25,324 nucleotides of DNA from a phage. The number at the start of each line of letters is the position of its first letter. Positions within the stretch are counted from its first letter, which is position 1. Location: the NCBI GenBank assembly GCA_015694865.1, contig GCA_015694865.1_3933.1. The stretch is one strand, 5' to 3'. The notes beneath the pieces are model-generated. The model saw nothing but the letters and a program-made list of their open reading frames with translations, was not told the origin of the DNA and ran no database searches. Positions 2,292 through 21,045 of this stretch are shown here, one piece after another. The position numbers and the translations under genes are program-made.

Positions 2292-2667
2292 TCATTTTAT
2301 CCCTTCTAATAATGATATATTCATAATGGGACGTATGGGCTAATTGCTGTGACCAATCCATAGTCATAAATACTTCATACTCATGACCATCAATCATAAC
2401 AATATCAGACTCATTCCACTCTACATCATCTGAAGTTCTAAGTTTATATGTGGTATACAGGATTCTTGTATCGGTAAGCCTAATACCTTCCGGTAAAGCA
2501 ATCTGTGTACCATTCTTTACAGAACCTTTGATATATGGCTGGATATTACCTTTGCAGTTAACCTCTACAATATCTTGCGAAGCTACCCAATCACCATCAT
2601 CATTATAATAACCGTCTTCAGAGACTTTACGCTTTACTACAAAGCTGTGTCTGTTTAAGAGTCTCAT
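2266..2667 (-). CDS. hypothetical virion protein
   Basis: 133 aa ORF; 4-nt overlap with the upstream ORF, typical translational coupling. Confidence 0.5.
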   Translation of the reverse strand: MRLLNRHSFVVKRKVSEDGYYNDDGDWVASQDIVEVNCKGNIQPYIKGSVKNGTQIALPEGIRLTDTRILYTTYKLRTSDDVEWNESDIVMIDGHEYEVFMTMDWSQQLAHTSHYEYIIIRRDKMNAVRNSRT

Positions 2668-3616: not shown

Positions 3617-4720
3617 TTAGTTTTGAGCGTCAGCACGAACATCTACCAGCAACTGAGGACGAGTACAGTATGGCAGCATGTAAGAGTGAGCTTCGAAGTC
3701 AATACCTTCGTCACGGTCTTTTTCGTATTCGAATACGTATAGTTCCTGACCAAGTGTATTTGCATAACCCATCTTAGGACATGGGCCGTATGCAACTTCA
3801 AAGATGTTGTTAGCTTCACCCAACATAGATACGTTAGGGAAAGCGTGCCCTACACCAACGCCTACACCAGCATCATCAATGTTAACCAGAGTGTGAACCT
3901 TACCACGCTTGTCTTTAAACTTACCGTTATACTGGACAAACTTAACGCCACCGTAGTAGAAAGTGTTCATGTGAGCCTGAACGCCGTCGGCACCACCAGT
4001 TCTCAGAGAACCAGTAATCTGTTGCCAAGCCAGTGGAGTCTGCTGTGCAAGATAAGCGTCACGAATCTTAGGATGCTTAACCAGTTTGCTGAAGAATACA
4101 CGGTCAACAACTACGTGAATCTCTTCACCGTTGATTACAGTGCCAGTCTTAGCTTCATCTTCCATGTGCATACGCAGTTCTTCAATAGAAGCGTCGATGT
4201 CAGCATTAGGGTTGTCAAGGTCGAAGTAAATAGTCTTCTTCCTAACGTCGAACTGCTTGTACAGGTCAGCGTACAGAGTACCACGAGCATCAACAACTTT
4301 ACCCTTCAGAGCTTGCATAAACAGGAACTCACGAGTAATATCGAACTTGGTACGAATCTTCATCAGCTTCTTGGCACGTACTACAGCTTCAGTAGTCAGT
4401 TCGTTTGCAGTGCCTGGCTGACGTACACCCTGAATCTCATCAGGAGTAATGCTTTCAACTTCTTTGAAGTACATCATTGGGAAGCTGATTTGACGAACAC
4501 GCTCAGGTGCGCTAGTCTCTGCTTTACGGCTATCACGGTCTACCGCATCAAGCAAGCTAACATCCCAATCAGTCAAGTCCATAAGGAAAGTAGTTTGGGT
4601 GATTGGTGCTGAACGGAATAGACCTAAGTTGGAAATATACCCATAAGTATTTGGGATAGACTGGACTTCACCAGTCAGGTCAGCAAGGAAAAATCTGCTT
4701 TTTTCAGAATTAGTCAACAT
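3617..4720 (-). CDS. major capsid protein (lambda gpE-like family)
   Basis: 367 aa ORF following the protease and decoration-like genes; size and gene order match lambda-like head modules. Confidence 0.7.
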   Translation of the reverse strand: MLTNSEKSRFFLADLTGEVQSIPNTYGYISNLGLFRSAPITQTTFLMDLTDWDVSLLDAVDRDSRKAETSAPERVRQISFPMMYFKEVESITPDEIQGVRQPGTANELTTEAVVRAKKLMKIRTKFDITREFLFMQALKGKVVDARGTLYADLYKQFDVRKKTIYFDLDNPNADIDASIEELRMHMEDEAKTGTVINGEEIHVVVDRVFFSKLVKHPKIRDAYLAQQTPLAWQQITGSLRTGGADGVQAHMNTFYYGGVKFVQYNGKFKDKRGKVHTLVNIDDAGVGVGVGHAFPNVSMLGEANNIFEVAYGPCPKMGYANTLGQELYVFEYEKDRDEGIDFEAHSYMLPYCTRPQLLVDVRADAQN

Positions 4721-10861: not shown

Positions 10862-10937
10862 TGGAGAATCCGAAGGGACTCGAACCCTTATAAACCTGTT
10901 TTGCAGACAGGCACATAGCCATTTCTGTCACGGATTC
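10862..10937 (-). tRNA. tRNA-Cys (anticodon GCA)
   Basis: 76 nt on reverse complement; acceptor GAATCCG/CGGATTC, T-arm AAGGG-TTCGAGT-CCCTT, anticodon loop CTGCAAA, CCA encoded. Confidence 0.8.
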
Positions 10938-10941
10938 AAAT

Positions 10942-11034
10942 TGGAGGAAGATACCAGACTTGAACTGGTACACCGATTTCTCAGCTACTGGCAGTTTAGC
11001 AAACTGCTCCCTTACCTTTTAGGGTTAATCTTCC
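10942..11034 (-). tRNA. tRNA-Ser (anticodon GCT), class II long variable arm
   Basis: 93 nt; acceptor GGAAGAT/ATCTTCC, anticodon stem GCAGT/ACTGC with loop TTGCTAA, about 21-nt variable arm, T-arm ACCAG-TTCAAGT-CTGGT, CCA encoded. Confidence 0.75.
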
Positions 11035-11035
11035 A

Positions 11036-11770
11036 TTATTTCTGTAATGCGTTCTTCATTTCTGGTGTTGCAATAGTGTCAATTACACCAGTTTTACAGG
11101 CATCATCAAACCAGTCTGGTAAGATACCTGCTAAGAACCCATTGATATTCGTTTTAAGGTACTCTGCAATAAGGGCAGCTTCTTCTTCAATCATCTGCAC
11201 AACTTCATCTGCATAAGCTGTAATCTTTGAGATACCTTCATTAATCTTACTGACAGCTTGGTTAGCTAAATCAGAAACAGTATCAAGACCCTTGTCAATA
11301 GCGTCTTGTAAGTCACTTAATACATCGTTAACACTCTCTAGTGTACTGTTAATCGTATCAATAGCTTTTTGACCATATTCTGTAGCAACACCCATAATAC
11401 CACTGAACGGTGTACAACCAACTTGTTCTCCTGCTGCACCCATAACATTGGAATATCCCTTTGCTACCTGCATACGTGATGAAAACTCATCAATAGATTT
11501 TTGACCGTAGTCTGTCAGGGTCTTAGTAGTTGCTGTAGTGCTTGTAAGGCTTGTTGTAAAGCTGTTTAGAAGGATTGTTGTAAGTCCAGCAGCAACAAGT
11601 TTCTCCTGCATTGTAGGGTCTGTTACAGAACTAATAGAGCTTACAAGTGATGTAGAAGCAGCTACGGTTCCACCGAGAACTGCTGCACCAGTAATAAGTG
11701 GGTTAGAAAACCCTTTACCGGTTTTTAAGAGATTAAAAATCTCCTTACCTTGTTCTGTCATCTCTTTCAT
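11036..11770 (-). CDS. hypothetical protein with N-terminal hydrophobic segment and long helical C-terminal region, embedded in the tRNA array
   Basis: ORF 11036..11833 trimmed to the internal Met at 11770 (AAAGG RBS) because the longer start would overlap tRNA-Phe; hydrophobic stretch LITGAAVLGGTVAASTSLVSSI. Confidence 0.5.
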   Translation of the reverse strand: MKEMTEQGKEIFNLLKTGKGFSNPLITGAAVLGGTVAASTSLVSSISSVTDPTMQEKLVAAGLTTILLNSFTTSLTSTTATTKTLTDYGQKSIDEFSSRMQVAKGYSNVMGAAGEQVGCTPFSGIMGVATEYGQKAIDTINSTLESVNDVLSDLQDAIDKGLDTVSDLANQAVSKINEGISKITAYADEVVQMIEEEAALIAEYLKTNINGFLAGILPDWFDDACKTGVIDTIATPEMKNALQK

Positions 11771-11786
11771 TAAGCACCTTTGAAAT

Positions 11787-11863
11787 TGGTAGTCCAGTGG
11801 GATTTGAACCCTCTTCTCATGTTTTTCAGACACGCGCTTTAACCATATAAGCTACTTGGACTA
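11787..11863 (-). tRNA. tRNA-Phe (anticodon GAA), acceptor/D-arm register ambiguous
   Basis: T-arm GAGGG-TTCAAAT-CCCAC, anticodon stem CGTGT/ACATG with loop CTGAAAA; the acceptor can pair as TAGTCCA/TGGACTA or a shifted register, so the ends are +/-2 nt. Confidence 0.55.
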
Positions 11864-11868
11864 TAAAT

Positions 11869-11944
11869 TGGGGTGACCTACGGGATTTGAACCCGTATAG
11901 ACCATGTTCACAGCATGGGTCATTACCATTTATGATAAGGCCAC
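11869..11944 (-). tRNA. tRNA-His (anticodon GTG)
   Basis: 76 nt; acceptor GTGGCCT/AGGTCAC, D-stem TCAT/ATGA, anticodon stem CCATG/CATGG with loop CTGTGAA, T-arm ACGGG-TTCAAAT-CCCGT, discriminator C, CCA encoded. Confidence 0.8.
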
Positions 11945-11975
11945 ATTTAAGGACTCTCGTAAGAACCCTTAGAAG

Positions 11976-12051
11976 TGGCAGCGGCATAAGGATTTGAACC
12001 TTAATAGGACAGCTTCAGAGACTGTTGCATTGCCAGTTATGCTATACCGCT
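11976..12051 (-). tRNA. tRNA-Gln (anticodon CTG)
   Basis: 76 nt; acceptor AGCGGTA/TGCCGCT, D-stem GCAT/ATGC, anticodon loop CTCTGAA, T-arm TAAGG-TTCAAAT-CCTTA, CCA encoded. Confidence 0.75.
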
Positions 12052-12056
12052 AAATT

Positions 12057-12135
12057 TGGTACTCCATATCGGATTCGAACCGATACATAACACAGATTTT
12101 AAGTCTGGCCTCTCTGCCAATTGGAGTAATGGAGC
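12057..12135 (-). tRNA. tRNA with Leu-type anticodon TAA but short variable region (atypical; isotype uncertain)
   Basis: 79 nt; acceptor GCTCCAT/ATGGAGT, T-arm ATCGG-TTCGAAT-CCGAT, best anticodon loop CTTAAAA on a 4-bp stem; no class II long arm. Confidence 0.5.
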
Positions 12136-12137
12136 AT

Positions 12138-12213
12138 TGGTGGGGGATGTTGGAATTGAACCAACTTCTTCGATTTCAAAGACCGAGGTTTTAACCTTGT
12201 AAACTAATCCCCT
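12138..12213 (-). tRNA. tRNA-Gln (anticodon TTG)
   Basis: 76 nt; T-arm GTTGG-TTCAATT-CCAAC, D-stem GTTT/AAAC, anticodon stem TCGGT/ATCGA with loop CTTTGAA; position 1-72 is an A-C mismatch. Confidence 0.7.
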
Positions 12214-12221
12214 TTAAATCT

Positions 12222-12779
12222 TTACTTTCTCAGTGGATGAATAAAGAATGCCAACATAACTCTTTCCCTTGAGAATGCTCTTTCTTCTGGGACAACACTT
12301 TTTAGTTTCCATCCAATATAAATTCTCCAGTAAAACTGTTTACCAAAGACTTTAATTGATGGGATAAAAGCGAATAATCCCCAAGCATTACTGTTCCACA
12401 TTAGGAGATAACCTGTCTGATTATCTTCAGGGTCAGAACTTACGTTGATATTACCTTTCCACTTAGTAACATCTTTTACATCTCTTCCTAATACATGGTA
12501 AGAGAAGTTATAGGCTTTGTTTCTCCAGAGCCATCCGACTCTCTGCATGTAGACACCCAGCTTACCAATCTTTCTAATCTTAGCCCATCGTTCGATATGA
12601 CCTTCGTCACCATCAATTGGGTTGTCATATGTCTCCATCCATCTAAATCCGAAAGGTAAGTGGCCTTTCTTCTCACTGTAAAATGGAACTACGAAAGGTG
12701 CTAAGATAACTGCTAAGGTTGCTGCTAATGGTTCTAGCAAAGCTAGGAAAATCCATGAAGCATATTTTAAATATCTCAT
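12222..12779 (-). CDS. hypothetical membrane-anchored protein embedded in the tRNA array
   Basis: 185 aa ORF; N-terminal hydrophobic helix (ASWIFLALLEPLAATLAVILAPFVVPF), Trp-rich soluble part; coupled to the upstream small ORF. Confidence 0.5.
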   Translation of the reverse strand: MRYLKYASWIFLALLEPLAATLAVILAPFVVPFYSEKKGHLPFGFRWMETYDNPIDGDEGHIERWAKIRKIGKLGVYMQRVGWLWRNKAYNFSYHVLGRDVKDVTKWKGNINVSSDPEDNQTGYLLMWNSNAWGLFAFIPSIKVFGKQFYWRIYIGWKLKSVVPEERAFSRERVMLAFFIHPLRK

Positions 12780-13018
12780 CGTCTAATCCTTGTAAGGAGA
12801 TAAATGTTATTATTCGTTTCTAAACCTTCTGGTAAAACTGTCTCAAAAATAACACTCTTTAGCTGTCTACCACCAAAACAATCACGTATAAATCTTTCTA
12901 CTCTAGCGGGGTCACATAAGTACCCTACTTTTAAGAAAATGTGGTGTTCAACACCAATGACCCTGACAAACTCAATATTCTCACAGTTTTCATGTTCAAC
13001 TACTGTTAATGTTTGCAT
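12776..13018 (-). CDS. hypothetical small protein (coupled to 12222..12779)
   Basis: 80 aa ORF; its stop overlaps the start of the downstream ORF (ATGA). Confidence 0.4.
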   Translation of the reverse strand: MQTLTVVEHENCENIEFVRVIGVEHHIFLKVGYLCDPARVERFIRDCFGGRQLKSVIFETVLPEGLETNNNIYLLTRIRR

Positions 13019-13035
13019 AGTATCACCTTTTTATC

Positions 13036-13111
13036 TGGCGCAGGATAAGGGATTCGAACCCCTATTAACAGCTTCGTAGACTGTTGCTCTATCCATTTGA
13101 ACTAATCCTGC
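13036..13111 (-). tRNA. tRNA-Arg (anticodon ACG)
   Basis: 76 nt; acceptor GCAGGAT/ATCCTGC, D-stem GTTC/GAGC, anticodon loop CTACGAA, T-arm AGGGG-TTCGAAT-CCCTT, CCA encoded. Confidence 0.8.
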
Positions 13112-13116
13112 AAAAT

Positions 13117-13194
13117 TGGTGTTCCAAGACGGATTCGAACCGTCACTAATACAAGGTTTGAGCTTACATCCTCTGCCAATTGGGATACTGGAAC
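13117..13194 (-). tRNA. tRNA with Leu-type anticodon CAA but short variable region (atypical; isotype uncertain)
   Basis: 78 nt; acceptor GTTCCAG/TTGGAAC, T-arm GACGG-TTCGAAT-CCGTC, D-loop AATTGGCAGAG shared with the 12057..12135 gene, anticodon loop CTCAAAC. Confidence 0.5.
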
Positions 13195-13195
13195 A

Positions 13196-13269
13196 TGGTA
13201 CTCACTAAAGGACTTGAACCTTTTCTTCATCTTGTAAGGGTGATGTTTTACCATATAAACTAAGCGAGT
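13196..13269 (-). tRNA. tRNA-Val (anticodon TAC)
   Basis: 74 nt; acceptor ACTCGCT/AGTGAGT, D-stem GTTT/AAAC, anticodon loop CTTACAA, T-arm AAAGG-TTCAAGT-CCTTT, CCA encoded; short variable loop. Confidence 0.65.
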
Positions 13270-13364
13270 GTGAAAGAGGTCTGAAGTTGTGCCGCTAACT
13301 CAACTCCGTGGAATTTGTTACGGTCTTCAGTTGACACCAGCGGTCTTTCACTTGACCTCTGAAT

Positions 13365-13441
13365 TGGTGCTGCTCACAGGACTCGAACCCGCATTTCCAT
13401 CCTTACAAGGGATGTGTAATAGCCAATTATACGAAAGCAGC
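13365..13441 (-). tRNA. tRNA-Thr (anticodon TGT)
   Basis: 77 nt; acceptor GCTGCTT/GAGCAGC, anticodon stem CATCC/GGATG with loop CTTGTAA, T-arm GCGGG-TTCGAGT-CCTGT, CCA encoded. Confidence 0.75.
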
Positions 13442-13448
13442 ATTAATT

Positions 13449-13524
13449 TGGAGCATCCAGAGGGAATCGAACCCTCAACCTCAGTTTGGAAGACTGTAAT
13501 TTTCCCGTTTAAACTATGGATGCA
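13449..13524 (-). tRNA. tRNA-Gly (anticodon TCC)
   Basis: 76 nt; acceptor GCATCCA/TGGATGC, anticodon loop CTTCCAA, T-arm GAGGG-TTCGATT-CCCTC, CCA encoded. Confidence 0.7.
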
Positions 13525-13529
13525 CTAAT

Positions 13530-13605
13530 TGGTGGAGAAGCAGGGAATTGAACCCTGTACTTAAGTTTGCAAAACTTATGTTTTAACCATGTAAACTACA
13601 TCCCC
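13530..13605 (-). tRNA. tRNA-Ala (anticodon TGC)
   Basis: 76 nt; G3-U70 wobble pair in the acceptor stem (Ala identity element), anticodon stem TAAGT/ACTTA with loop TTTGCAA, T-arm CAGGG-TTCAATT-CCCTG, CCA encoded. Confidence 0.75.
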
Positions 13606-13611
13606 AATGTA

Positions 13612-13687
13612 TGGTACAGGTGGAGGGAATTGAACCCATCGTCTTACTGATTAAGAGTCAGCCGCATAACCATTTTGCTACACCTGC
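13612..13687 (-). tRNA. tRNA-Lys (anticodon CTT)
   Basis: 76 nt; acceptor GCAGGTG/CACCTGT, anticodon stem GCTGA/TCAGT with loop CTCTTAA, T-loop TTCAATT, CCA encoded. Confidence 0.7.
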
Positions 13688-13694
13688 ATTAATT

Positions 13695-13772
13695 TGGTAG
13701 GAGACAAGGGATTCGAACCCTCAAACACCAACTTCTAAGGATGGTAGGTTTACCAATTACCGTCAATCTCCC
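13695..13772 (-). tRNA. tRNA with Leu-type anticodon TAG but short variable region (atypical; isotype uncertain)
   Basis: 78 nt; acceptor GGGAGAT/GTCTCCT, T-arm GAGGG-TTCGAAT-CCCTT, anticodon loop CTTAGAA on stem CCATC/GTTGG; D-arm poorly paired. Confidence 0.45.
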
Positions 13773-14028
13773 ATTAAATCTTTTTAGAGAACTTCTAAGA
13801 ACCTAAGCAACAAGGTTCCACAACAAGCTGTAATAACCTTAGAAGCCCTCTAAAAAGACCTAAAAAGGTCTTTGCATAGTCTTGTTTAATCCGGTGACTA
13901 GAACCTTTGGAGAGCTTGATATTATCTCTTCTCCGTGACACCTACTAGGTGCTTTACTGTGCTTGTACGACAATACACGAGGGATACCAAAGCAACATCC
14001 GAATGAAGCTTGGCTTTAAACCTTATTA

Positions 14029-14118
14029 GGCGGTAAGTAAAGGAGTCGAACCCTCACCGTATCTCTACAGTGGCAACTGTTTTCAAGACAGTTTGGCTAC
14101 CATTAGCCGCTACCTACC
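14029..14118 (-). tRNA. tRNA-Ser (anticodon TGA), class II
   Basis: About 88 nt; acceptor GGTAGGT/ACTTACC, D-stem GGC/GCC, anticodon stem ACTGT/ACAGT with loop CTTGAAA, long variable arm, T-loop TTCGACT; only CC of CCA encoded. Confidence 0.7.
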
Positions 14119-14131
14119 CCTAATAAGACTT

Positions 14132-14214
14132 TGGCATGGGACGGAGGAGTTGAACCCCTTTGAAACGGTTTTGGAGGCCGTTGCTCATGCCTTAGAGTCT
14201 TAACATCGTCCCAT
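14132..14214 (-). tRNA. tRNA-Trp-like (anticodon CCA) with abnormally long D-region; possibly a tRNA-like ncRNA
   Basis: 83 nt; perfect 7-bp acceptor ATGGGAC/GTCCCAT, T-loop TTCAACT, anticodon arm ACGGC-CTCCAAA-ACCGT, but about 16 nt between the D-stem strands. Confidence 0.5.
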
Positions 14215-14356
14215 ATTATAATTCGAAGCTTACCGTATTATCTCAACACTGTAAAGCCCCTTCTCAGATTATTTACATGTTCTGGAAAACATGAGATACA
14301 GACCACCTCCCTACAGGAAGACCCGCTTAGGTCGTCTAAGTAATCTGCTAACTAAT

Positions 14357-14433
14357 TGGCACACCCTACAGGATTCGAACCTGTAACTAACGATTTAGAA
14401 GACCGTTGCTCTATCCAATTGAACTAAGGGTGC
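14357..14433 (-). tRNA. tRNA-Arg (anticodon TCT)
   Basis: 77 nt; acceptor GCACCCT/AGGGTGT, D-stem GTTC/GAGC, anticodon stem ACGGT/ATCGT with loop CTTCTAA, T-arm ACAGG-TTCGAAT-CCTGT, CCA encoded. Confidence 0.8.
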
Positions 14434-14636
14434 ATTAATCTTTAAAGACTCTCTTAGAAAGCCCTTAAAGATGCCCACCTTATTAATCATACCGTGGGCT
14501 AGTACGCCAAATTCTTTGATGAGGGATTGGAAGACCTCACTGGTGTTTAGCCTATCAAGCTACTGCCAGAAAAACATTGTCGTTTGCATTTATTTTAAAT
14601 TTGCAAAATAGACGCTACGCAACGAAAACTAAGGTT

Positions 14637-14665
14637 ACTATAAAGTAGTCACATCTCAATGTCAA
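14637..14665 (-). promoter_or_regulatory. sigma70-like promoter on minus strand (TTGACA-17 bp-TATAGT)
   Basis: Plus-strand tgtcaa at 14660-14665 and actata at 14637-14642 give, on the minus strand, -35 TTGACA, a 17-nt spacer and -10 TATAGT, pointing at tRNA-Arg(TCT) and downstream tRNAs. Confidence 0.55.
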
Positions 14666-14680
14666 CAACTTTATTGAAAT

Positions 14681-14756
14681 TGGTACTGGTAGGTGGAATC
14701 GAACCACCGATGTTCCCTTATCAGGGGAGTGTTATAACCTTCTTAACTATACCAGC
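14681..14756 (-). tRNA. tRNA-Ile (anticodon GAT)
   Basis: 76 nt; acceptor GCTGGTA/TACCAGT, D-stem GTTA/TAAC, anticodon loop CTGATAA, T-arm GGTGG-TTCGATT-CCACC, CCA encoded. Confidence 0.75.
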
Positions 14757-14757
14757 T

Positions 14758-14834
14758 TGGAGGTTCAGATGGGATTCGAACCCATCGCCTGTCAGATTAA
14801 AAGTCTGCCGCATCACCATTCTGCTACACTTCCA
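14758..14834 (-). tRNA. tRNA-Lys-like (anticodon TTT) with poorly paired acceptor stem (possible pseudo-tRNA)
   Basis: Paralogous in sequence to the 13612..13687 tRNA-Lys; good T-arm ATGGG-TTCGAAT-CCCAT and anticodon arm GCAGA-CTTTTAA-TCTGA, but acceptor strands GGAAGTG vs CTGAACC pair at only 3 of 7 positions. Confidence 0.45.
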
Positions 14835-14837
14835 TTA

Positions 14838-14981
14838 AATTATCTTTGTAGATAAGCTACCCAGACTTGCTTAATGTCTGTAGCGATGTGCCTTTTTGGG
14901 TTTAAATCTAGAATTTACCCTTTCACCCTTTGTGGTCGCATACTCACAGGTAAGCTTAATAACTTATCTACAAAGATAATT
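14838..14981. repeat. 19-bp perfect inverted repeat (14838-14856 / 14963-14981) flanking a 106-bp non-coding segment
   Basis: aattatctttgtagataag at 14838-14856 is the exact reverse complement of cttatctacaaagataatt at 14963-14981. Confidence 0.7.
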
Positions 14982-15030
14982 ACCAGACCGTTGTTTATCA
15001 TCTTAAGTGCTACCATTACACCAACTCGAC

Positions 15031-15080
15031 ATCTGCCGAGTGAAGGAATCGAACCTTCGCCTTTTCTTTACCGGAGAAAT
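15031..15080 (-). ncRNA. tRNA-like fragment (T-arm plus 3' acceptor strand without a pairing 5' strand)
   Basis: Reverse complement gives TTTCT-CCGGTAA-AGAAA, then GAAGG-TTCGATT-CCTTC-ACTCGGC; no complementary 5' acceptor strand or recognisable D-arm within about 80 nt upstream. Confidence 0.35.
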
Positions 15081-15120
15081 AGATTGTTTAAGTTTTGCTG
15101 AATACGGTCTTCTGCAAAAT

Positions 15121-15197
15121 TGGAGGCGGGTGCAGGAGTCGAACCTACCGATACCATGCTAATGAGACATGTGAGACGCCCTTTCTCTATACCCGCA
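15121..15197 (-). tRNA. tRNA-Met (anticodon CAT; elongator, initiator or Ile2 not distinguishable)
   Basis: 77 nt; T-arm GTAGG-TTCGACT-CCTGC, anticodon stem CATGT/GCATG with loop CTCATTA, acceptor ACCCGCC with a 1-72 T-C mismatch in the best register, CCA encoded. Confidence 0.6.
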
Positions 15198-15287
15198 ATT
15201 CTCAATGACCAGACCAAATATCTTCTTTGTCCGATTTCGTGTCAGATGAGTAGATTAAGTTTGCTGTAATTGGTCTTCTGTCAAAAC

Positions 15288-15365
15288 TGGCGTTCCAGAA
15301 GGGATTTGAACCCTCAGATATCCACTTTGAAAGAGTGGTGACTTTACCATTTTGTCTACTGGAAC
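15288..15365 (-). tRNA. tRNA-Glu (anticodon TTC)
   Basis: 78 nt; acceptor GTTCCAG/CTGGAAC, anticodon stem CCACT/AGTGG with loop CTTTCAA, T-arm GAGGG-TTCAAAT-CCCTT, CCA encoded. Confidence 0.7.
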
Positions 15366-15375
15366 ATTAATTTGT

Positions 15376-15449
15376 TCTCTGTTGGAGGACTTGAACCTCC
15401 GGCCTTACCGCCCCAAACGGAACGCTCTACCAAGCTGAGCTAAACAGAG
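15376..15449 (-). tRNA. tRNA-Pro (anticodon TGG)
   Basis: 74 nt without CCA; C1-G72 pair, D-arm TAGCTCAGCTTGGTAGAGC, anticodon loop TTTGGGG with G37, T-arm GGAGG-TTCAAGT-CCTCC. Confidence 0.75.
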
Positions 15450-15567
15450 ATAAACTTTTCAAACTCTATGTAACCACTTTAACATTATTTTTTAGTGGTT
15501 GTCAAGAACTTTTTTAAAATATTTTTCAGTATCTTAGAAAAGCTCTCATTTCGTTTCTATGTAGAAC

Positions 15568-15614: not shown

Positions 15615-17029
15615 TTACCAGATGTAACGGTCAATCATTACTGCTTTGAGCATTACACTGATTGGGTCAAACTTCTCACCACCAAGCAGAGCTTTTAAAG
15701 TAGCTGGAGAAAAACCAGATACCATTGCTACACCGTTATCCTTAACAGACACTTCGCAAGTACCATTACGGTTTGCTAAGTACCAGAATACCAGTTGAGG
15801 CATTTCGTATCCAGCTTTTTTGTACTTACTCTGAATTGCTTCAAAGTTTGTACGACCGTTAGCTCCATCAACCTGATTGAACTCCATATCGGAGAAGATG
15901 ATAAGCTTACTTGCATGTCTTTCTTAGTCAAGTTGTTTCTCTTACCTACCTCAAGAATCCGGTCAAAAGCTGCTTGTAAGTTAGTTGAGCCATATTCAAC
16001 ATGTCGCATCACCTGACGATGACGGTTTCGTAAATCACCACTCAGTTCGATGAAGTGAGGGTTTGTTGAATAAACCATTAACTCATCCTTAAAGCAACCT
16101 GTATTGCGTTCTGCTACATACAAGGCAAGGGATACACCAATATCAAGGGCAGTGATTGAACCAAGATTCACCCAAGACATTGAGCTTGAAACATCAGTCA
16201 TACACAAGATGTTTTCACCTTCTGCCATCCAGTTTGGTAGTGCTTTCCACTGCTCATTGGCAACATCTGCATTACCATGCTTGATAGACTTAATCACATC
16301 GTATGGGTAAACAGCACCAGCGTTAATCTTAGTCTCACCTTTTGATAAGGACTCAATGTAAGCTTTGTAACGTTCTCCATCCTTACGGTTAAACAGTTTT
16401 TGGTAACGTGCAGCAGCAAGTGAAGGAGTCTTACTGTAGTCAATCTTACCAAACTCATTAGCAGAGATTTTTTGCTCAACTGTATCAGATAGTGCAGACA
16501 ACAGTGTGCGGTACTCTTTCTCACTCAAGTTGGCAAACTTGCAGAAACGTTTTACAAACTGCTTATGACGTGGTTTGACTCGTGGTAACCACTTAGCCGC
16601 CAAACCTGCTGTTGCAGGTTCTAGTAATGCTGCTTCTAGATGTTTGAAGGCATCTGTCTCGAAACGAGTACCTACGAAGATTTTGAAGTCATCAAAACGA
16701 CCAAGTTCTGCAATCTTATCCATAATGCGAAGAACCTGCGTAGGCTCTAAAACTTTGTCTTCAATCGCTTGAAGTAAAACAGTTCTGAAGGCTTTACGCT
16801 CACCCATACCTTCTCGTACATCTCGCATATGAAGCAAAATACGAACTGCAACATCAACATCCTCACGCAAAGCTTTGTAGAACAGGTCTGGTAAGATTTC
16901 TACGTTGCTACGGCTTGAACCAGCAGCTTTGTAAAAGTCTACAAGAGCAGACATTGATGAAGTATGGTTTACAGCACCATTTTCAGTTCGACCTGCATGA
17001 AGGTGCGCATGTTTAAATAATTCGCTCAT
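15615..17029 (-). CDS. Ro60-like vWA-domain protein, interrupted by an apparent frameshift near 15885-15926
   Basis: Two overlapping minus-strand ORFs (15776..17029 and 15615..15887) in different frames; MIDAS-like TDVSSSM motif in the first; the second frame reads ...HASKLIIFSDMEFNQ..., typical of the end of a vWA fold. Ro60-like (DUF2828-type) assignment is from memory. Confidence 0.6.
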
Positions 17030-17893: not shown

Positions 17894-18108
17894 AAATCGC
17901 AGATATTATAGATTTATATCAAACTGCAAAGAGTCATGGCTATATAACCTCAATTGGAAAGAATAGTCACTATGATGCTTTGACTGGAATGTATTTCAGG
18001 GCAATGGCTCAATCTAGTGAACAACACTTAATGGTTTCTTCCAGTGAGTTTACTTCGTTTCTCTATTGCAGCAAAATTATAAACCGCAGGAGAACTGAAA
18101 AATGTTAA
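17875..18108 (+). CDS. hypothetical protein
   Basis: 77 aa ORF with AAGAGG RBS upstream; overlaps the previous ORF by 19 nt. Confidence 0.45.
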   Translation: MCSSQLEIADIIDLYQTAKSHGYITSIGKNSHYDALTGMYFRAMAQSSEQHLMVSSSEFTSFLYCSKIINRRRTEKC

Positions 18109-18692
18109 CAGTAAGTTTTAATTACAATAGTGATGGCTCTGTATCAATTAATTCACCATATGCAAATGACCTGCTTAAAGAGCTAGTTAATCAGTGTGAT
18201 AGAGGTCTTCACTATGTTCAAAATTCTTTTAAACAGAAGACTATTGCTAATAACTTGATGCGTGTAACAGTAACGGCATCGAATCAAAATTATGACTTTG
18301 ATAGTGAAAGTCCGTACTCATTAGTTGCGCTTGGAGAGAGCAGCCAATTCAAACTTGTTTGCCACGACTCAGAAACATTCCTTAAGGTATTTTCAAACCT
18401 TATCCATAATAATAAGTACAGCTACGTTGATGGTAGTGTAAACTTCTATCCAGCAAATTATACATGTTTGTTGGTTGATAACATGAGAAAGAGTAAGCAA
18501 GAGCCTACAGAAATTTCATTTGATGTGAACTCTAGTCCAGACGCAGAAACAAGTAAGAACTTTGATATGAGTTACGCATTGTCGCTCAGTAAGAAATCCG
18601 AGTTCATTGATTATGTCAATGGATTTGATTTTAAGTTTGATGAGAGTATGAATCTTAAAAAACTTAAAAACCTACTTAAGACCAAAGCTTAA
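18102..18692 (+). CDS. hypothetical protein
   Basis: 196 aa ORF; GGAG RBS; start overlaps the previous stop. Confidence 0.55.
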   Translation: MLTVSFNYNSDGSVSINSPYANDLLKELVNQCDRGLHYVQNSFKQKTIANNLMRVTVTASNQNYDFDSESPYSLVALGESSQFKLVCHDSETFLKVFSNLIHNNKYSYVDGSVNFYPANYTCLLVDNMRKSKQEPTEISFDVNSSPDAETSKNFDMSYALSLSKKSEFIDYVNGFDFKFDESMNLKKLKNLLKTKA

Positions 18693-18739
18693 GTGTGAAT
18701 AGGGGCATCAGTCCCTTTAACTATTTATAAGGATATTTA

Positions 18740-19111
18740 ATGAAAGCTAAGAGTGCAAAAGACTTTTATTGCTTACTACAATCCTATATCAATTCCGTGC
18801 AAAATGGTGAAAGGTACAACCTTAATGATGTTATCCCAACACCTTTGACATGGAGACTCAGTAAATGGCCTGAAGAAGATATTACACCAACAAGCAAACA
18901 ACACACCTACAAACCTGAAATCAATATTCCAGACTCTGAGAACCTATTATATCCAATGTTCCATATTGTTGGTCTTGGGAGATTCCTTATGGATATTCAG
19001 TATGTAATTGGTAAAGGTTATAAGGTTAAAGGCATTGTTGTTGGTGATGTATCTCCACACCACAAAGGTTATTTTAGACTAAACGCACATTTAGAGGCTA
19101 AAAAGAAATGA
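18740..19111 (+). CDS. hypothetical protein, paralog of the N-terminal region of 19108..19740
   Basis: 123 aa; AAGGA RBS; shares motifs with the next ORF (W.EEDI / WPEADI, YKP, DSE..LY / SDELLY, MDIQY / MDLQY). Confidence 0.55.
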   Translation: MKAKSAKDFYCLLQSYINSVQNGERYNLNDVIPTPLTWRLSKWPEEDITPTSKQHTYKPEINIPDSENLLYPMFHIVGLGRFLMDIQYVIGKGYKVKGIVVGDVSPHHKGYFRLNAHLEAKKK

Positions 19112-19740
19112 TTAAAGCAAAGACTTACCCAGACTTTAAAGAGTTTGTGAAGGGCTTCATTGCAAACGTAAAGGTTGGTAAGAGATATGATTTTAGAACA
19201 TATCAAGAGGCTATTTTACCACTTACCTATAGTTCATATTGGCCTGAAGCTGATATTGCAGAAGTTGAGAAGTTTGACTACAAACCAGACTACAAAGTTC
19301 CATTTAGTGATGAATTGCTTTACAGTGTTGGTGCACAGATGAGAACTGCTGATTTCTTCATGGATTTGCAGTATGCAATCATCAATGGTAAAGATGTTGA
19401 CACAATTTACTGTGAATGGTTGGCAAGAGTTAAGCCGTTCTCAATGTTGAATGCTAAGTTGAAAGATGTCATCACACCACCAACAATCACTCAGCAACCA
19501 ACCAATCAAACAGTAAATGAAGGGGGTACACTTACCCTAAGCGTTATTGCAACTAATGCCACTGGTTATCAATGGAAAAAGGATGGTGAGGACATCCCTA
19601 GTGCCAATTCTGCAACTTACACCAAAGAAGGTGCAACCGCTGCTGATGCAGGAAGCTACACCTGTGTAGTTACTGGTGCAGGTGGCTCTGTAACATCTAA
19701 TGCAGCAACAGTTACTGTTAACCCAGCAGGGGAGGCATAA
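19108..19740 (+). CDS. hypothetical protein with C-terminal Ig-like domain
   Basis: 210 aa; ATGA overlap with the previous gene; C-terminus ...TLTLSVIATNATGYQWKKDGEDIPSANSATYTKEGATAADAGSYTCVVTGAGGSVTSNAATVTV... has the Y-x-C pattern of Ig-like domains. Confidence 0.6.
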   Translation: MIKAKTYPDFKEFVKGFIANVKVGKRYDFRTYQEAILPLTYSSYWPEADIAEVEKFDYKPDYKVPFSDELLYSVGAQMRTADFFMDLQYAIINGKDVDTIYCEWLARVKPFSMLNAKLKDVITPPTITQQPTNQTVNEGGTLTLSVIATNATGYQWKKDGEDIPSANSATYTKEGATAADAGSYTCVVTGAGGSVTSNAATVTVNPAGEA

Positions 19741-20204
19741 TGCAACTCTCAAGAAAAGGTTTAGAAGCTATTAAGTTCTTTGAAGGTCTTAAGCTTGAGG
19801 CTTACGAAGATTCTGCTGGAATCCCCACAATTGGGTATGGGACAATTCGTATTGGTGGGAAGCCTGTTAAGATGGGTATGAAGATTACCGCTGAACAAGC
19901 TGAACAGTATCTTCTTGCAGATGTTGAAAAGTTCGTTGCAGCAGTGAACAAAGCCATCAAGGTTCCAACTTCTCAGAATGAGTTTGATGCACTTGTAAGT
20001 GAAACATACAACATTGGTATCACAGCTATGCAGGACTCTACATTTATCAAGCGCCACAATGCTGGTAATAAGGTCGGTTGTGCAGAAGCTATGCAGTGGT
20101 GGAACAAGGTTACAGTAAAAGGTAAGAAGGTCACTTCAAACGGCCTGAAAAACAGACGTAGAATGGAAGCTGACATTTATCTTGACAGTGTATATCCAAA
20201 GTAA
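19740..20204 (+). CDS. endolysin, GH24 (T4 lysozyme-like) family
   Basis: 154 aa; N-terminal FEGLKLEAYEDSAGIPTIGYG carries the Glu…Asp…Thr catalytic arrangement; GGGGAGG RBS; terminator immediately downstream. Confidence 0.85.
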   Translation: MQLSRKGLEAIKFFEGLKLEAYEDSAGIPTIGYGTIRIGGKPVKMGMKITAEQAEQYLLADVEKFVAAVNKAIKVPTSQNEFDALVSETYNIGITAMQDSTFIKRHNAGNKVGCAEAMQWWNKVTVKGKKVTSNGLKNRRRMEADIYLDSVYPK

Positions 20205-20213
20205 TATCTTCAT

Positions 20214-20240
20214 AGGCTCCTTCGGGAGCCTTTTTTATTT
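20214..20240 (+). terminator. rho-independent terminator after the endolysin gene
   Basis: AGGCTCC-ttcg-GGAGCCT hairpin followed by TTTTTTATTTT. Confidence 0.8.
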
Positions 20241-20255
20241 TCTAAGGAGAAAACT

Positions 20256-20654
20256 ATGAAACTTTGGGCTAGTGACTTTGGAACTTTTAAGTACACTCGT
20301 AATGGCTCGCTTGTACGCATTGTCGGAAACAATGTGGTTTCAAGAGGTGACAAGGTGTATACACGGTTTACTGTAGAGCTTGTTGAGCTGTCGCCTATTG
20401 AGTCTGTGAACAATGGTCTGTTCAAGTTTGAGACTTACAATGTCAATGAGCATGGACAATTTAACCCTCTTGGCGAAAGTGGACTTGATATTATTTCAGA
20501 ACACCCGTTGACAAAAGAGCAACTTGCAGGTTACTATAAAACTGTTCTGGAAAGGCAGTTAGCAACACATGAACAAGAAGCTAACTACCACCTACATCAT
20601 TGCGAAACTTTAAGAGCAAAAATCGAACAAGCAGAGAGAGGTTTTTATGAATAA
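20256..20654 (+). CDS. hypothetical protein
   Basis: 132 aa ORF; AAGGAG RBS. Confidence 0.55.
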   Translation: MKLWASDFGTFKYTRNGSLVRIVGNNVVSRGDKVYTRFTVELVELSPIESVNNGLFKFETYNVNEHGQFNPLGESGLDIISEHPLTKEQLAGYYKTVLERQLATHEQEANYHLHHCETLRAKIEQAERGFYE

Positions 20655-21045
20655 AGATGTTAGAGATATCCAAGTAAAAGTTGACACGTTTGGCCATGAT
20701 GGTCGAGAAGATATAGGTTTTGCCGATGCAGTAATATACAAGTGCAACGGAGATTTATTCCTTCAGTTTACAGGGTCTGGAAGCACACTTCATCGAGTAC
20801 GAGATGATGAAGATGGTTGTCCTGTATTTGGTTGGTTTGACAGGGAGTTCCCTCTTTACGCAATCCACTACCCAGATGGTGGTGAAGATTGGACAACCCA
20901 ATCAATCTTTGATGAGCTTAATGGTGTTCCAGTTGAGCAAGAAGAGCGAGAGCCTGTTGAACTTACCTTCACCTTTATCAAAGAAGAGAAAGTAGGTGAC
21001 TTGTCAGTAACTGAAGCAATTCAAGTTTCACAGGTGATTCGTTAA
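20647..21045 (+). CDS. hypothetical protein
   Basis: 132 aa ORF; overlaps the previous stop; GAGAGG RBS. Confidence 0.55.
   Translation: MNKDVRDIQVKVDTFGHDGREDIGFADAVIYKCNGDLFLQFTGSGSTLHRVRDDEDGCPVFGWFDREFPLYAIHYPDGGEDWTTQSIFDELNGVPVEQEEREPVELTFTFIKEEKVGDLSVTEAIQVSQVIR

Follow-up and report, generated by a model that had tools for sequence, protein, structure and literature searches.

Two adjacent genes, open reading frame (ORF) A (18740..19111, + strand) and ORF B (19108..19740, +), form a pair of tandem paralogs in the 25,324-nt stretch of phage DNA analyzed here (the window; all positions refer to the whole stretch, and strands are relative to the strand shown). The 210-aa product of ORF B is very probably the ortholog of Bas63 Hex-Dec, Sf14 gp20, and Felix O1 gp36, that is, a Hoc-like capsid decoration protein, and the 123-aa product of ORF A a paralog of its capsid-binding domain (CapBD). 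This degree of confidence applies to the identities of A and B taken jointly; the function of A lies outside it. The window comes from a Felix O1–like myophage of the genus Felixounavirus. The region has matches in 251 phage records, which come almost exclusively from Felixounavirus or other Ounavirinae, with a best identity of 97%.

ORF B encodes a probable Hoc-like capsid decoration protein

In phmmer searches of the PDB, B matches Bas63 Hex-Dec (9ncf_S, 460 aa, E = 2e-223) and Sf14 gp20 (9c2d_S, 372 aa, E = 5.6e-153). Residues 1–206 of B align with residues 1–207 of these solved proteins and are colinear with them from residue 1, and the solved orthologs differ from B by three (Bas63) or two (Sf14) further immunoglobulin (Ig) repeats. 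Alignment with the solved orthologs places the CapBD of B at residues 1–122 (19108..19473, +), with two pseudo-symmetric lobes and with Arg79 and Arg107, both of which are invariant across 17 aligned homologs. The CapBD is 88–98% identical to that of Bas63 Hex-Dec (9NCF chain S) and Sf14 gp20 (9C2D/9C3A chain S), and the type of Ig repeat is also shared. Every testable defining feature of the Hex-Dec/Sf14 gp20 family is found in B, and a family can now be named for a protein that the original prediction had left unassigned. The AlphaFold2 (AF2) model of the CapBD, built from a shallow alignment, was poor (predicted local distance difference test score, pLDDT, 35–65), and the solved orthologs were relied on instead; the authors of the Sf14 structure met the same problem with AlphaFold (PMC11821841).

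Two structural studies by cryo-electron microscopy (cryo-EM) have described the orthologs of B (PMC12609058, PMC11821841). Hex-Dec and gp20 are Hoc-like monomers with an N-terminal CapBD of approximately 118 to 122 residues, which is composed of two pseudo-two-fold lobes and occupies the center of the 60 pentamer-proximal hexamers of a T=9 capsid, while the 20 hexamers on the true three-fold axes are empty. In Sf14, Arg79 and Arg107 form salt bridges to Asp221 of three of the six capsid subunits (PMC11821841). The Ig domains point outward and are too mobile to be resolved, and their genes are more than 10 kb away from the structural module (PMC12609058, PMC11821841). In Felix O1, gp36 was found in virions by mass spectrometry with 44% peptide coverage and was named "major tail protein," and ORFs 36 and 37 were both maximal at 60 min, alongside tail-fiber and portal genes (PMC3185647).

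The partner of B in such an arrangement is also present in the window. The major capsid protein gene (3617..4720, −) encodes a protein that is nearly identical to Bas63 gp8 (approximately 98% identity to the cognate capsid proteins; phmmer against the PDB, 9ncf_A, E = 1.1e-242, and 9c2d_A, E = 1.2e-230), and the Asp equivalent to Asp221 of Sf14 gp34 is kept as residue 220, within the motif KIRDAY. This gene is located approximately 15 kb from ORF B on the opposite strand, beyond a cluster of 22 tRNA genes. By orthology, the CapBD of B is predicted, with high confidence, to sit as a monomeric plug in the center of every pentamer-proximal hexamer, 60 in all, of the T=9 capsid. Arg79 and Arg107 would hold it to a ring of capsid-protein Asp221 residues, and the Ig domain would project outward from the capsid. 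By analogy with T4 Hoc, the displayed domain may let virions adhere weakly to surfaces of the host or the environment, or promote their aggregation, and B would then be an accessory protein. It is in this limited form, the sticking of virions to surfaces through the Ig domain, that the "surface interaction" suggested in the original prediction can be kept as a proposal.

Databases give a different account of B. PHROG 3995, to which B belongs (E = 1.7e-120), and GenBank/RefSeq entries carry the label "tail protein," and the virion detection of Felix O1 gp36 led to its naming as a major tail protein (PMC3185647). It is extremely improbable that B, and A by propagation of the label, are tail proteins. 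The tail PHROGs that match B (158, 853, 3575, and 9239) cover only its Ig region, at residues ~96–209, whereas residues 1–122 match only the capsid-bound CapBD. Mass spectrometry of virions cannot distinguish head from tail, and in the Bas63 and Sf14 atomic models the CapBD is found in capsid hexamers and the tail tube and sheath are assigned to other genes (PMC12609058, PMC11821841). The tail labels are wrong; they derive from the Felix O1 gp36 name and PHROG 3995, and in many records both genes now carry them.

A second account starts from the position of the pair. The gene that follows ORF B (19740..20204, +) encodes a 154-aa GH24 endolysin (Phage_lysozyme PF00959, E = 6.7e-41; PHROG 7, endolysin), and the two paralogs do lie immediately upstream of it, with exactly the boundaries originally given. 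The three + strand genes are tightly packed: the stop codon of ORF A and the start codon of ORF B overlap in ATGA at 19108–19111, and the stop codon of ORF B and the start codon of the endolysin gene overlap in TAATG at 19738–19742. Both the endolysin gene and ORF A are thus predicted to be translationally coupled to ORF B. This immediate adjacency and coupling, and the lack of a holin gene beside the lysin gene in Felix O1–type phages (PMC3185647, PMC4837284), would favor a role of A and B as accessories of the endolysin in lysis or at the cell wall, as the original prediction had suggested; a holin, a spanin, and a subunit for wall binding or targeting would be examples. Such a role is very improbable, however, since neither protein has a transmembrane segment or a signal-like N-terminus (maximum Kyte–Doolittle 19-residue means of 1.14 for A and 1.04 for B), neither matches a lysis family in Pfam or PHROGs, and the orthologs of B are found on the capsid in the two cryo-EM structures and in virion mass spectrometry (PMC12609058, PMC11821841, PMC3185647). 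Furthermore, the Felix O1 endolysin (ORF35) peaks at 25 min, compared to 60 min for ORFs 36 and 37 (PMC3185647), and the adjacency is a conserved synteny of the whole subfamily, with the B gene directly upstream of a GH24 lysin gene in Felix O1, VpaE1, Sf14, and Michonne alike. On present evidence, the endolysin is a conserved neighbor of B and not its functional partner.

Origin of the tandem paralogs

The two genes are paralogs that arose by local duplication, as the original prediction had proposed from shared motifs. In a pairwise BLASTP alignment, A and B share 37% identity across 101 residues (E = 7e-16), and a phmmer search of the PDB with A matched only the N-terminal ~118 residues of the solved orthologs of B (9ncf_S, E = 7e-11; 9c2d_S, E = 3e-10). 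Because of these matches, the similarity is far beyond chance and spans all of A. Gene conversion between ORFs A and B was considered and rejected, as their nucleotide identity is only 45–50% and their longest shared stretch without a mismatch, at the WPE-DI motif, measures 10 nt.

An exhaustive profile search of 1.84 billion representative proteins returned only 12 proteins, all of them CapBD proteins of Ounavirinae-like phages, and no link of the CapBD to any other family was found among these representatives. ORF A is conserved in three genera and in one deep metagenomic lineage. The latter is a divergent 87-kb metagenomic ounavirus (L004), in which the order A (122 aa), B (298 aa), and endolysin is kept. 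In a distance tree that includes this lineage, the A and B clades are reciprocally monophyletic.

More distant relatives (L006 and L009–L013) carry a single CapBD gene at the equivalent position with the same flanking genes. It directly follows a homolog of the 196-aa gene that precedes ORF A in the window (E = 3e-17 in L009 and 4e-20 in L006) and, where the contig extends far enough, directly precedes a lysozyme gene. The pairing of the 196-aa gene with a CapBD gene is seen in these relatives and is therefore older than the A/B duplication. The metagenomic single-copy proteins P0100–P0104 have the same CapBD as A and B (profile E from 5e-9 to 1.6e-4), and where their contigs suffice, the order of genes is that of the window: DUF2828, DUF5681, a 62-aa gene, a gene for ~185–205 aa, the CapBD gene, and lysozyme. 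They differ from the window in having one gene and not two, and in their display module. A C-terminal module is already present in the single-copy proteins and is swapped among them, being a Big_2-type Ig domain, an I-set Ig domain, or a Lys-rich tail.

In the distance tree, the single-copy proteins are nearer to B (36–38% identity) than to A (24–27%). Since these outgroups carry a C-terminal module and sit nearer to B, it is B that keeps the ancestral architecture. A arose once, within Ounavirinae, as a lineage-specific and faster-diverging copy. Of the two possibilities raised in the original prediction, that the second gene gained an Ig domain or that the first lost it, the gain by B is contradicted by these outgroup loci, and the loss by A holds only as one option. 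A is either a copy of the 5' ~370 nt alone or a copy that subsequently lost the Ig domain.

Recombination in the Ig domain

The presence of an Ig-like domain in the second gene, as originally predicted, is confirmed at residues 125–206 of B (19480..19725, +). Pfam assigns residues 124–204 to Ig_3 (E = 6.5e-12) and also to I-set and Ig_2, all above their gathering scores. AF2 models residues ~125–206 as a beta-sandwich with a pLDDT of 93–96, and Foldseek matches this model to Ig C2/I-set domains (top match 3bfo_A; TM-score, 0.90; root-mean-square deviation, 1.5 Å).

The number of Ig repeats varies widely among the relatives. Among 45 full-length matches sampled at even spacing, in which repeats were counted from BLAST spans, 8 records have one repeat, 14 have two, 17 have three, and 6 have four. 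Four repeats have been reported for Bas63 alone among ICTV species (PMC12609058); the 6 four-repeat records in the sample of 45 indicate that such forms are not confined to Bas63. Isolates for which four repeats are implied, by the length of the span from ORF A to the endolysin gene alone, include MET-P1-301, DaR-2019b, LNA1, Shy, ZX4221, and KEP3.

The single Ig domain of the window, compared to the four of Bas63 and the three of Sf14, is a chimera. Its first ~140 nt resemble the first repeat of VpaE1 and Andreotti, with 28 of 30 nucleotides identical per block, and the remainder resembles the last repeat of these phages (29 of 30). The matches in successive 30-nt blocks are 28, 28, 28, 28, and 24 and then 17 and 19 against the first Ig repeat of VpaE1, and 24, 17, 20, 21, and 25 and then 29, 28, and 28 against its last. 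Comparison with the multi-Ig relatives, which also yielded a residue-level mosaic map, places the switch from first-repeat to last-repeat type at codons 169–173, which encode ATYTK (19612..19626, +). The Ig domain of the window joins the first and the last repeat of a longer array in register, and this chimera was produced by unequal homologous recombination.

Other single-Ig forms have a different composition. The single repeat of NBSal004 is of the last-repeat type throughout, and among 40 single-Ig proteins, at least eight different mosaics are found, some with segments of middle repeats. Because of this diversity, the single-Ig forms must have arisen repeatedly by in-register unequal recombination, and the Ig copy number (one to four) is in continual flux. 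A further variant is seen in P0078, a 209-aa B homolog of Salmonella phage GE_vB_B3, which has a normal CapBD and a frameshift inside the Ig domain that puts it out of frame from residue ~158. Either the frameshift is an assembly error, or it is one more indication of an expendable Ig part.

Conservation and variation of ORF A

The orthologs of A include Felix O1 gp37, Sf14 gp21, and Bas63 gene 125; gp21 is mentioned in neither the text nor the supplements of the Sf14 structure paper (PMC11821841). A is assigned to PHROG 4463 (unknown function), matches nothing in Pfam, and ends at residue 123, right after the CapBD, where the Ig display domain of B would follow. Its AF2 model (m9a1e0bc31bfe) has a predicted TM-score of 0.67, and its only significant matches in a Foldseek search of the PDB are 9c2d_S and 9ncf_S (TM-score, ~0.65; E = 3e-5). 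As judged from the alignments and this model, A is a CapBD without an Ig domain, sharing the fold of Bas63 Hex-Dec and Sf14 gp20 at approximately 35% identity.

ORF A is matched over at least 80% of its length in 233 of 253 records, and the retrieved orthologs are almost all 122–124 aa long. Pairwise dN/dS values are 0.07–0.18 for A compared to 0.03–0.06 for the CapBD of B, and dN is approximately twofold higher in A. Across three genera, the second lobe has nearly as many invariant columns in A (42 of 54) as in B (43 of 53). In the first lobe, the numbers are 28 of 46 for A and 41 of 47 for B, and this lobe is relaxed in A. ORF A is a real gene under purifying selection, which is strongest on the second lobe.

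In the PhageMaP knockout screen of Bas63, the scores of genes 124 (Hex-Dec) and 125 (the ortholog of A) are near zero. The capsid gene scores approximately −3.6 on a strain presumed to be MG1655, and on S17-1 the requirement for gene 124 is slightly greater. The scores of gene 125 are noisy and indicate dispensability, with no host-specific or defense-specific phenotype. The Bas63 ortholog of A is dispensable in the laboratory.

Natural variants also occur. ORF A is a pseudogene in approximately 19 of the 253 records, including those of Z31 (2306..2497 of locus L015), mio (1079..1269 of L023), and SP116 (1078..1269 of L024). These three pseudogenes have an identical internal deletion of ~225 nt, a lost start codon, and point changes, and the shared deletion and start-codon loss suggest that they descend from one ancestral pseudogenization event. 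ORF B remains whole in mio, with 294 aa, and in SP116, with 210 aa; in Z31, it is broken within the Ig region and is annotated as two ORFs. In Salmonella phage SP3_SHan-2021 (2501..3379 of L016), the two genes have collapsed into a hybrid of residues 1–48 of A and residue 49 to the end of B, with two Ig domains, and the isolate is viable. The crossover lies at the shared WPE-DI motif, the site of the longest nucleotide identity between the paralogs, and the hybrid resulted from a deletion between them at this microhomology.

Possible functions of ORF A

A would be a late protein that still uses its CapBD fold, chiefly the second lobe, to attach in a changed mode to a conserved partner, for which the capsid lattice is the most plausible candidate. 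Its action may be transient or involve few copies, for example on hexamers of the procapsid or at sites not used by B, and would not be that of a stable decoration; confidence in both steps is low. In a more specific form of this proposal, which is tentative and rather unlikely as it stands, A and B would partition the capsid lattice, with A binding hexamers at a stage or site that is invisible in icosahedrally averaged maps of mature virions and controlling the loading of B. Candidate sites would be the hexamers of procapsids that have not yet expanded, the 20 true three-fold hexamers if occupied at a low level, and portal-proximal hexamers. We know of no description of such a placeholder or regulator role for Hoc-like proteins.

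Several points weigh against the interpretation of the two genes given here. The capsid binding of B in the window phage, though predicted with high confidence, is transferred by orthology through a CapBD that is 88–98% identical, and the adhesive role suggested for its Ig domain is drawn by analogy from T4 Hoc and is only a proposal in the cited papers as well. For A, the model is of only moderate confidence (pLDDT 65.5). The positions equivalent to Arg79 and Arg107 are occupied in all A orthologs by Gly and by His or Gln, respectively, which speaks against capsid binding of the kind known for B, and the net charge is not conserved among the orthologs. Felix O1 gp37 is not in the published list of virion proteins, which covers proteins with at least 25% coverage (PMC3185647), and no density was seen on the other 20 hexamers in either cryo-EM study (PMC12609058, PMC11821841). 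The idea that A is consistently basic to suit an acidic hexamer pore was also considered and found no support, since the isoelectric point is 9.3 for A in the window and ranges from 5.2 to 9.3 among its orthologs.

A could instead be a second stable decoration protein, which either occupies the 20 three-fold hexamers or competes with B at the 60 sites and so tunes the number of Ig fibers. The shared CapBD fold, the conservation of the second lobe to the same degree as in B, and the predicted translational coupling to B are consistent with this, as is the late expression of the Felix O1 ortholog together with that of B (PMC3185647). In addition, the Asp221 side chains are placed differently in the three-fold hexamers of Sf14 and could select a different binder (PMC11821841). 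A stable decoration is nevertheless improbable: the three-fold hexamers lack density, B accounts well for the strong density at the 60 sites (PMC12609058, PMC11821841), gp37 is absent from the Felix O1 virion list (PMC3185647), and the anchoring arginines are lost. An explanation that dispenses with the capsid altogether, in which A is a duplicate that has no function or is decaying, or has taken on another role such as an interaction with the host or its defenses, is likewise unlikely, though it has more to recommend it. The dispensability of the gene in Bas63, its pseudogenization through one shared internal deletion in ~19 of 253 records, its collapse into the hybrid of SP3_SHan-2021, its faster evolution with a relaxed first lobe, and the loss of the capsid-contact arginines all point in this direction. 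Set against these are the near-complete matches in 233 of 253 records and the uniform length of the orthologs, the retention of the gene across three genera and a deep metagenomic lineage, and dN/dS values that are incompatible with neutrality. PADLOC found no defense or anti-defense match for A, for B, or for the 196-aa gene upstream, which argues against recruitment to such a role. Binding of the capsid lattice in a changed mode is the function proposed, with low confidence, for A, which is classified here as a CapBD paralog and not as a decoration protein, as it lacks two of the features that define the family, the anchoring arginines and the Ig display domain.

Genomic context

The A–B–endolysin unit ends in a strong intrinsic terminator identified by a terminator scan (20214..20241, +), with the hairpin AGGCTCC-ttcg-GGAGCCT followed by TTTTTTATTTT. 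On its other side, reading of the sequence revealed a weak hairpin between the 196-aa gene and ORF A (18702..18729, +), in which GGGGC-atca-GTCCC (18702–18715) is followed by TTTAACTATTTATA; it escaped the terminator consensus scan because of its short T-run. Its equivalent in Felix O1 has been listed as a rho-independent terminator (PMC3185647), and the annotation of Michonne has terminators at both places, before ORF A and after the endolysin gene. No convincing T4-type late or sigma-70 promoter was found in the 47-nt gap before ORF A.

The 196-aa gene directly upstream of ORF A (18102..18692, +; PHROG 4034) is of unknown function, and the PhageMaP scores of its Bas63 ortholog (gene 126) are mildly negative. 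The 22 tRNA genes are clustered at 10862..15450 (−), between the structural module and a divergent promoter region, and the same is the case in Felix O1. Farther upstream of the pair, a gene of the DUF2828/vWFA type has a 1-nt deletion at ~15914 (CATG-CAAG compared to CATGCCAAG), which splits it into ORFs of 417 aa (15776..17029, −) and 90 aa (15615..15887). In relatives, this gene is labeled "RNA-binding protein" and encodes 471 aa in VpaE1 (gp045) and Felix O1 (gp42). The split gene is either a pseudogene or the result of a sequencing error. Downstream, a 132-aa gene (20647..21045, +) has homologs (Andreotti_103, mio_119, and Bas63 gene 121) that are labeled "D-alanyl-D-alanine carboxypeptidase." It has no Pfam match and matches only PHROG 4348 (unknown function), and the label on its homologs is probably a propagated mis-annotation.

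Comparison with known systems and implications

The closest known system is that of Bas63 and Sf14, in which the B gene also lies between a 123-aa gene and the endolysin gene. A differs from the decoration proteins of these phages in that no ortholog of A has been seen on a capsid. Compared to T4 Hoc, the B family shows the same general design, as both are dispensable accessory monomers at the hexamer center with an outward string of Ig domains and an acidic surface, and the number of Ig domains varies among relatives in both. However, the capsid-binding domain of Hoc is C-terminal, after the Ig domains, whereas the CapBD of the B family is larger, has a distinct, pseudo-two-fold topology, and resembles Hoc in sequence only in the Ig part (PMC12609058, PMC11821841). 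The Hoc-like PHROGs 2973, 4069, and 3945 match only residues ~122–208 of B. T4 Hoc is an analogue of B and not a member of the same family. T5 pb10 (5LXK) and other Ig-bearing phage decoration proteins share with B the order of a capsid-binding domain at the N-terminus and an Ig-like domain at the C-terminus. The similarity is confined to the Ig domain (5lxk_A and 8zvi_a, E ~1e-13), and the capsid-binding domains are unrelated by sequence.

B was already known through its orthologs, and the new part of this work is modest. It comprises the A/B paralogy and its history, the pseudogene and hybrid variants, and the recombinational origin of the one-Ig forms. In the literature searched, including both structural studies, no mention was found of the A/B paralogy, the Ig chimera, or recombination leading to single-Ig forms.

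These results correct the "tail protein" and "major tail protein" labels carried by both genes in hundreds of genomes of Felix O1–like phages, a group that is used in the typing of Salmonella and E. coli, in biocontrol, and in therapy. They also bear on the gain or loss of Ig domains, a question left open by both structural papers, in that unequal recombination between repeats shortens the array and probably also lengthens it. A minimal capsid anchor of ~120 aa that accepts an I-set Ig domain, a Big_2 Ig domain, or a Lys-rich tail is relevant to phage display on T=9 capsids. The conserved paralog without an Ig domain represents a natural experiment on the site specificity of proteins that bind the hexamer center, and if A and B do partition the capsid lattice, A would be a placeholder or regulator of a decoration protein.

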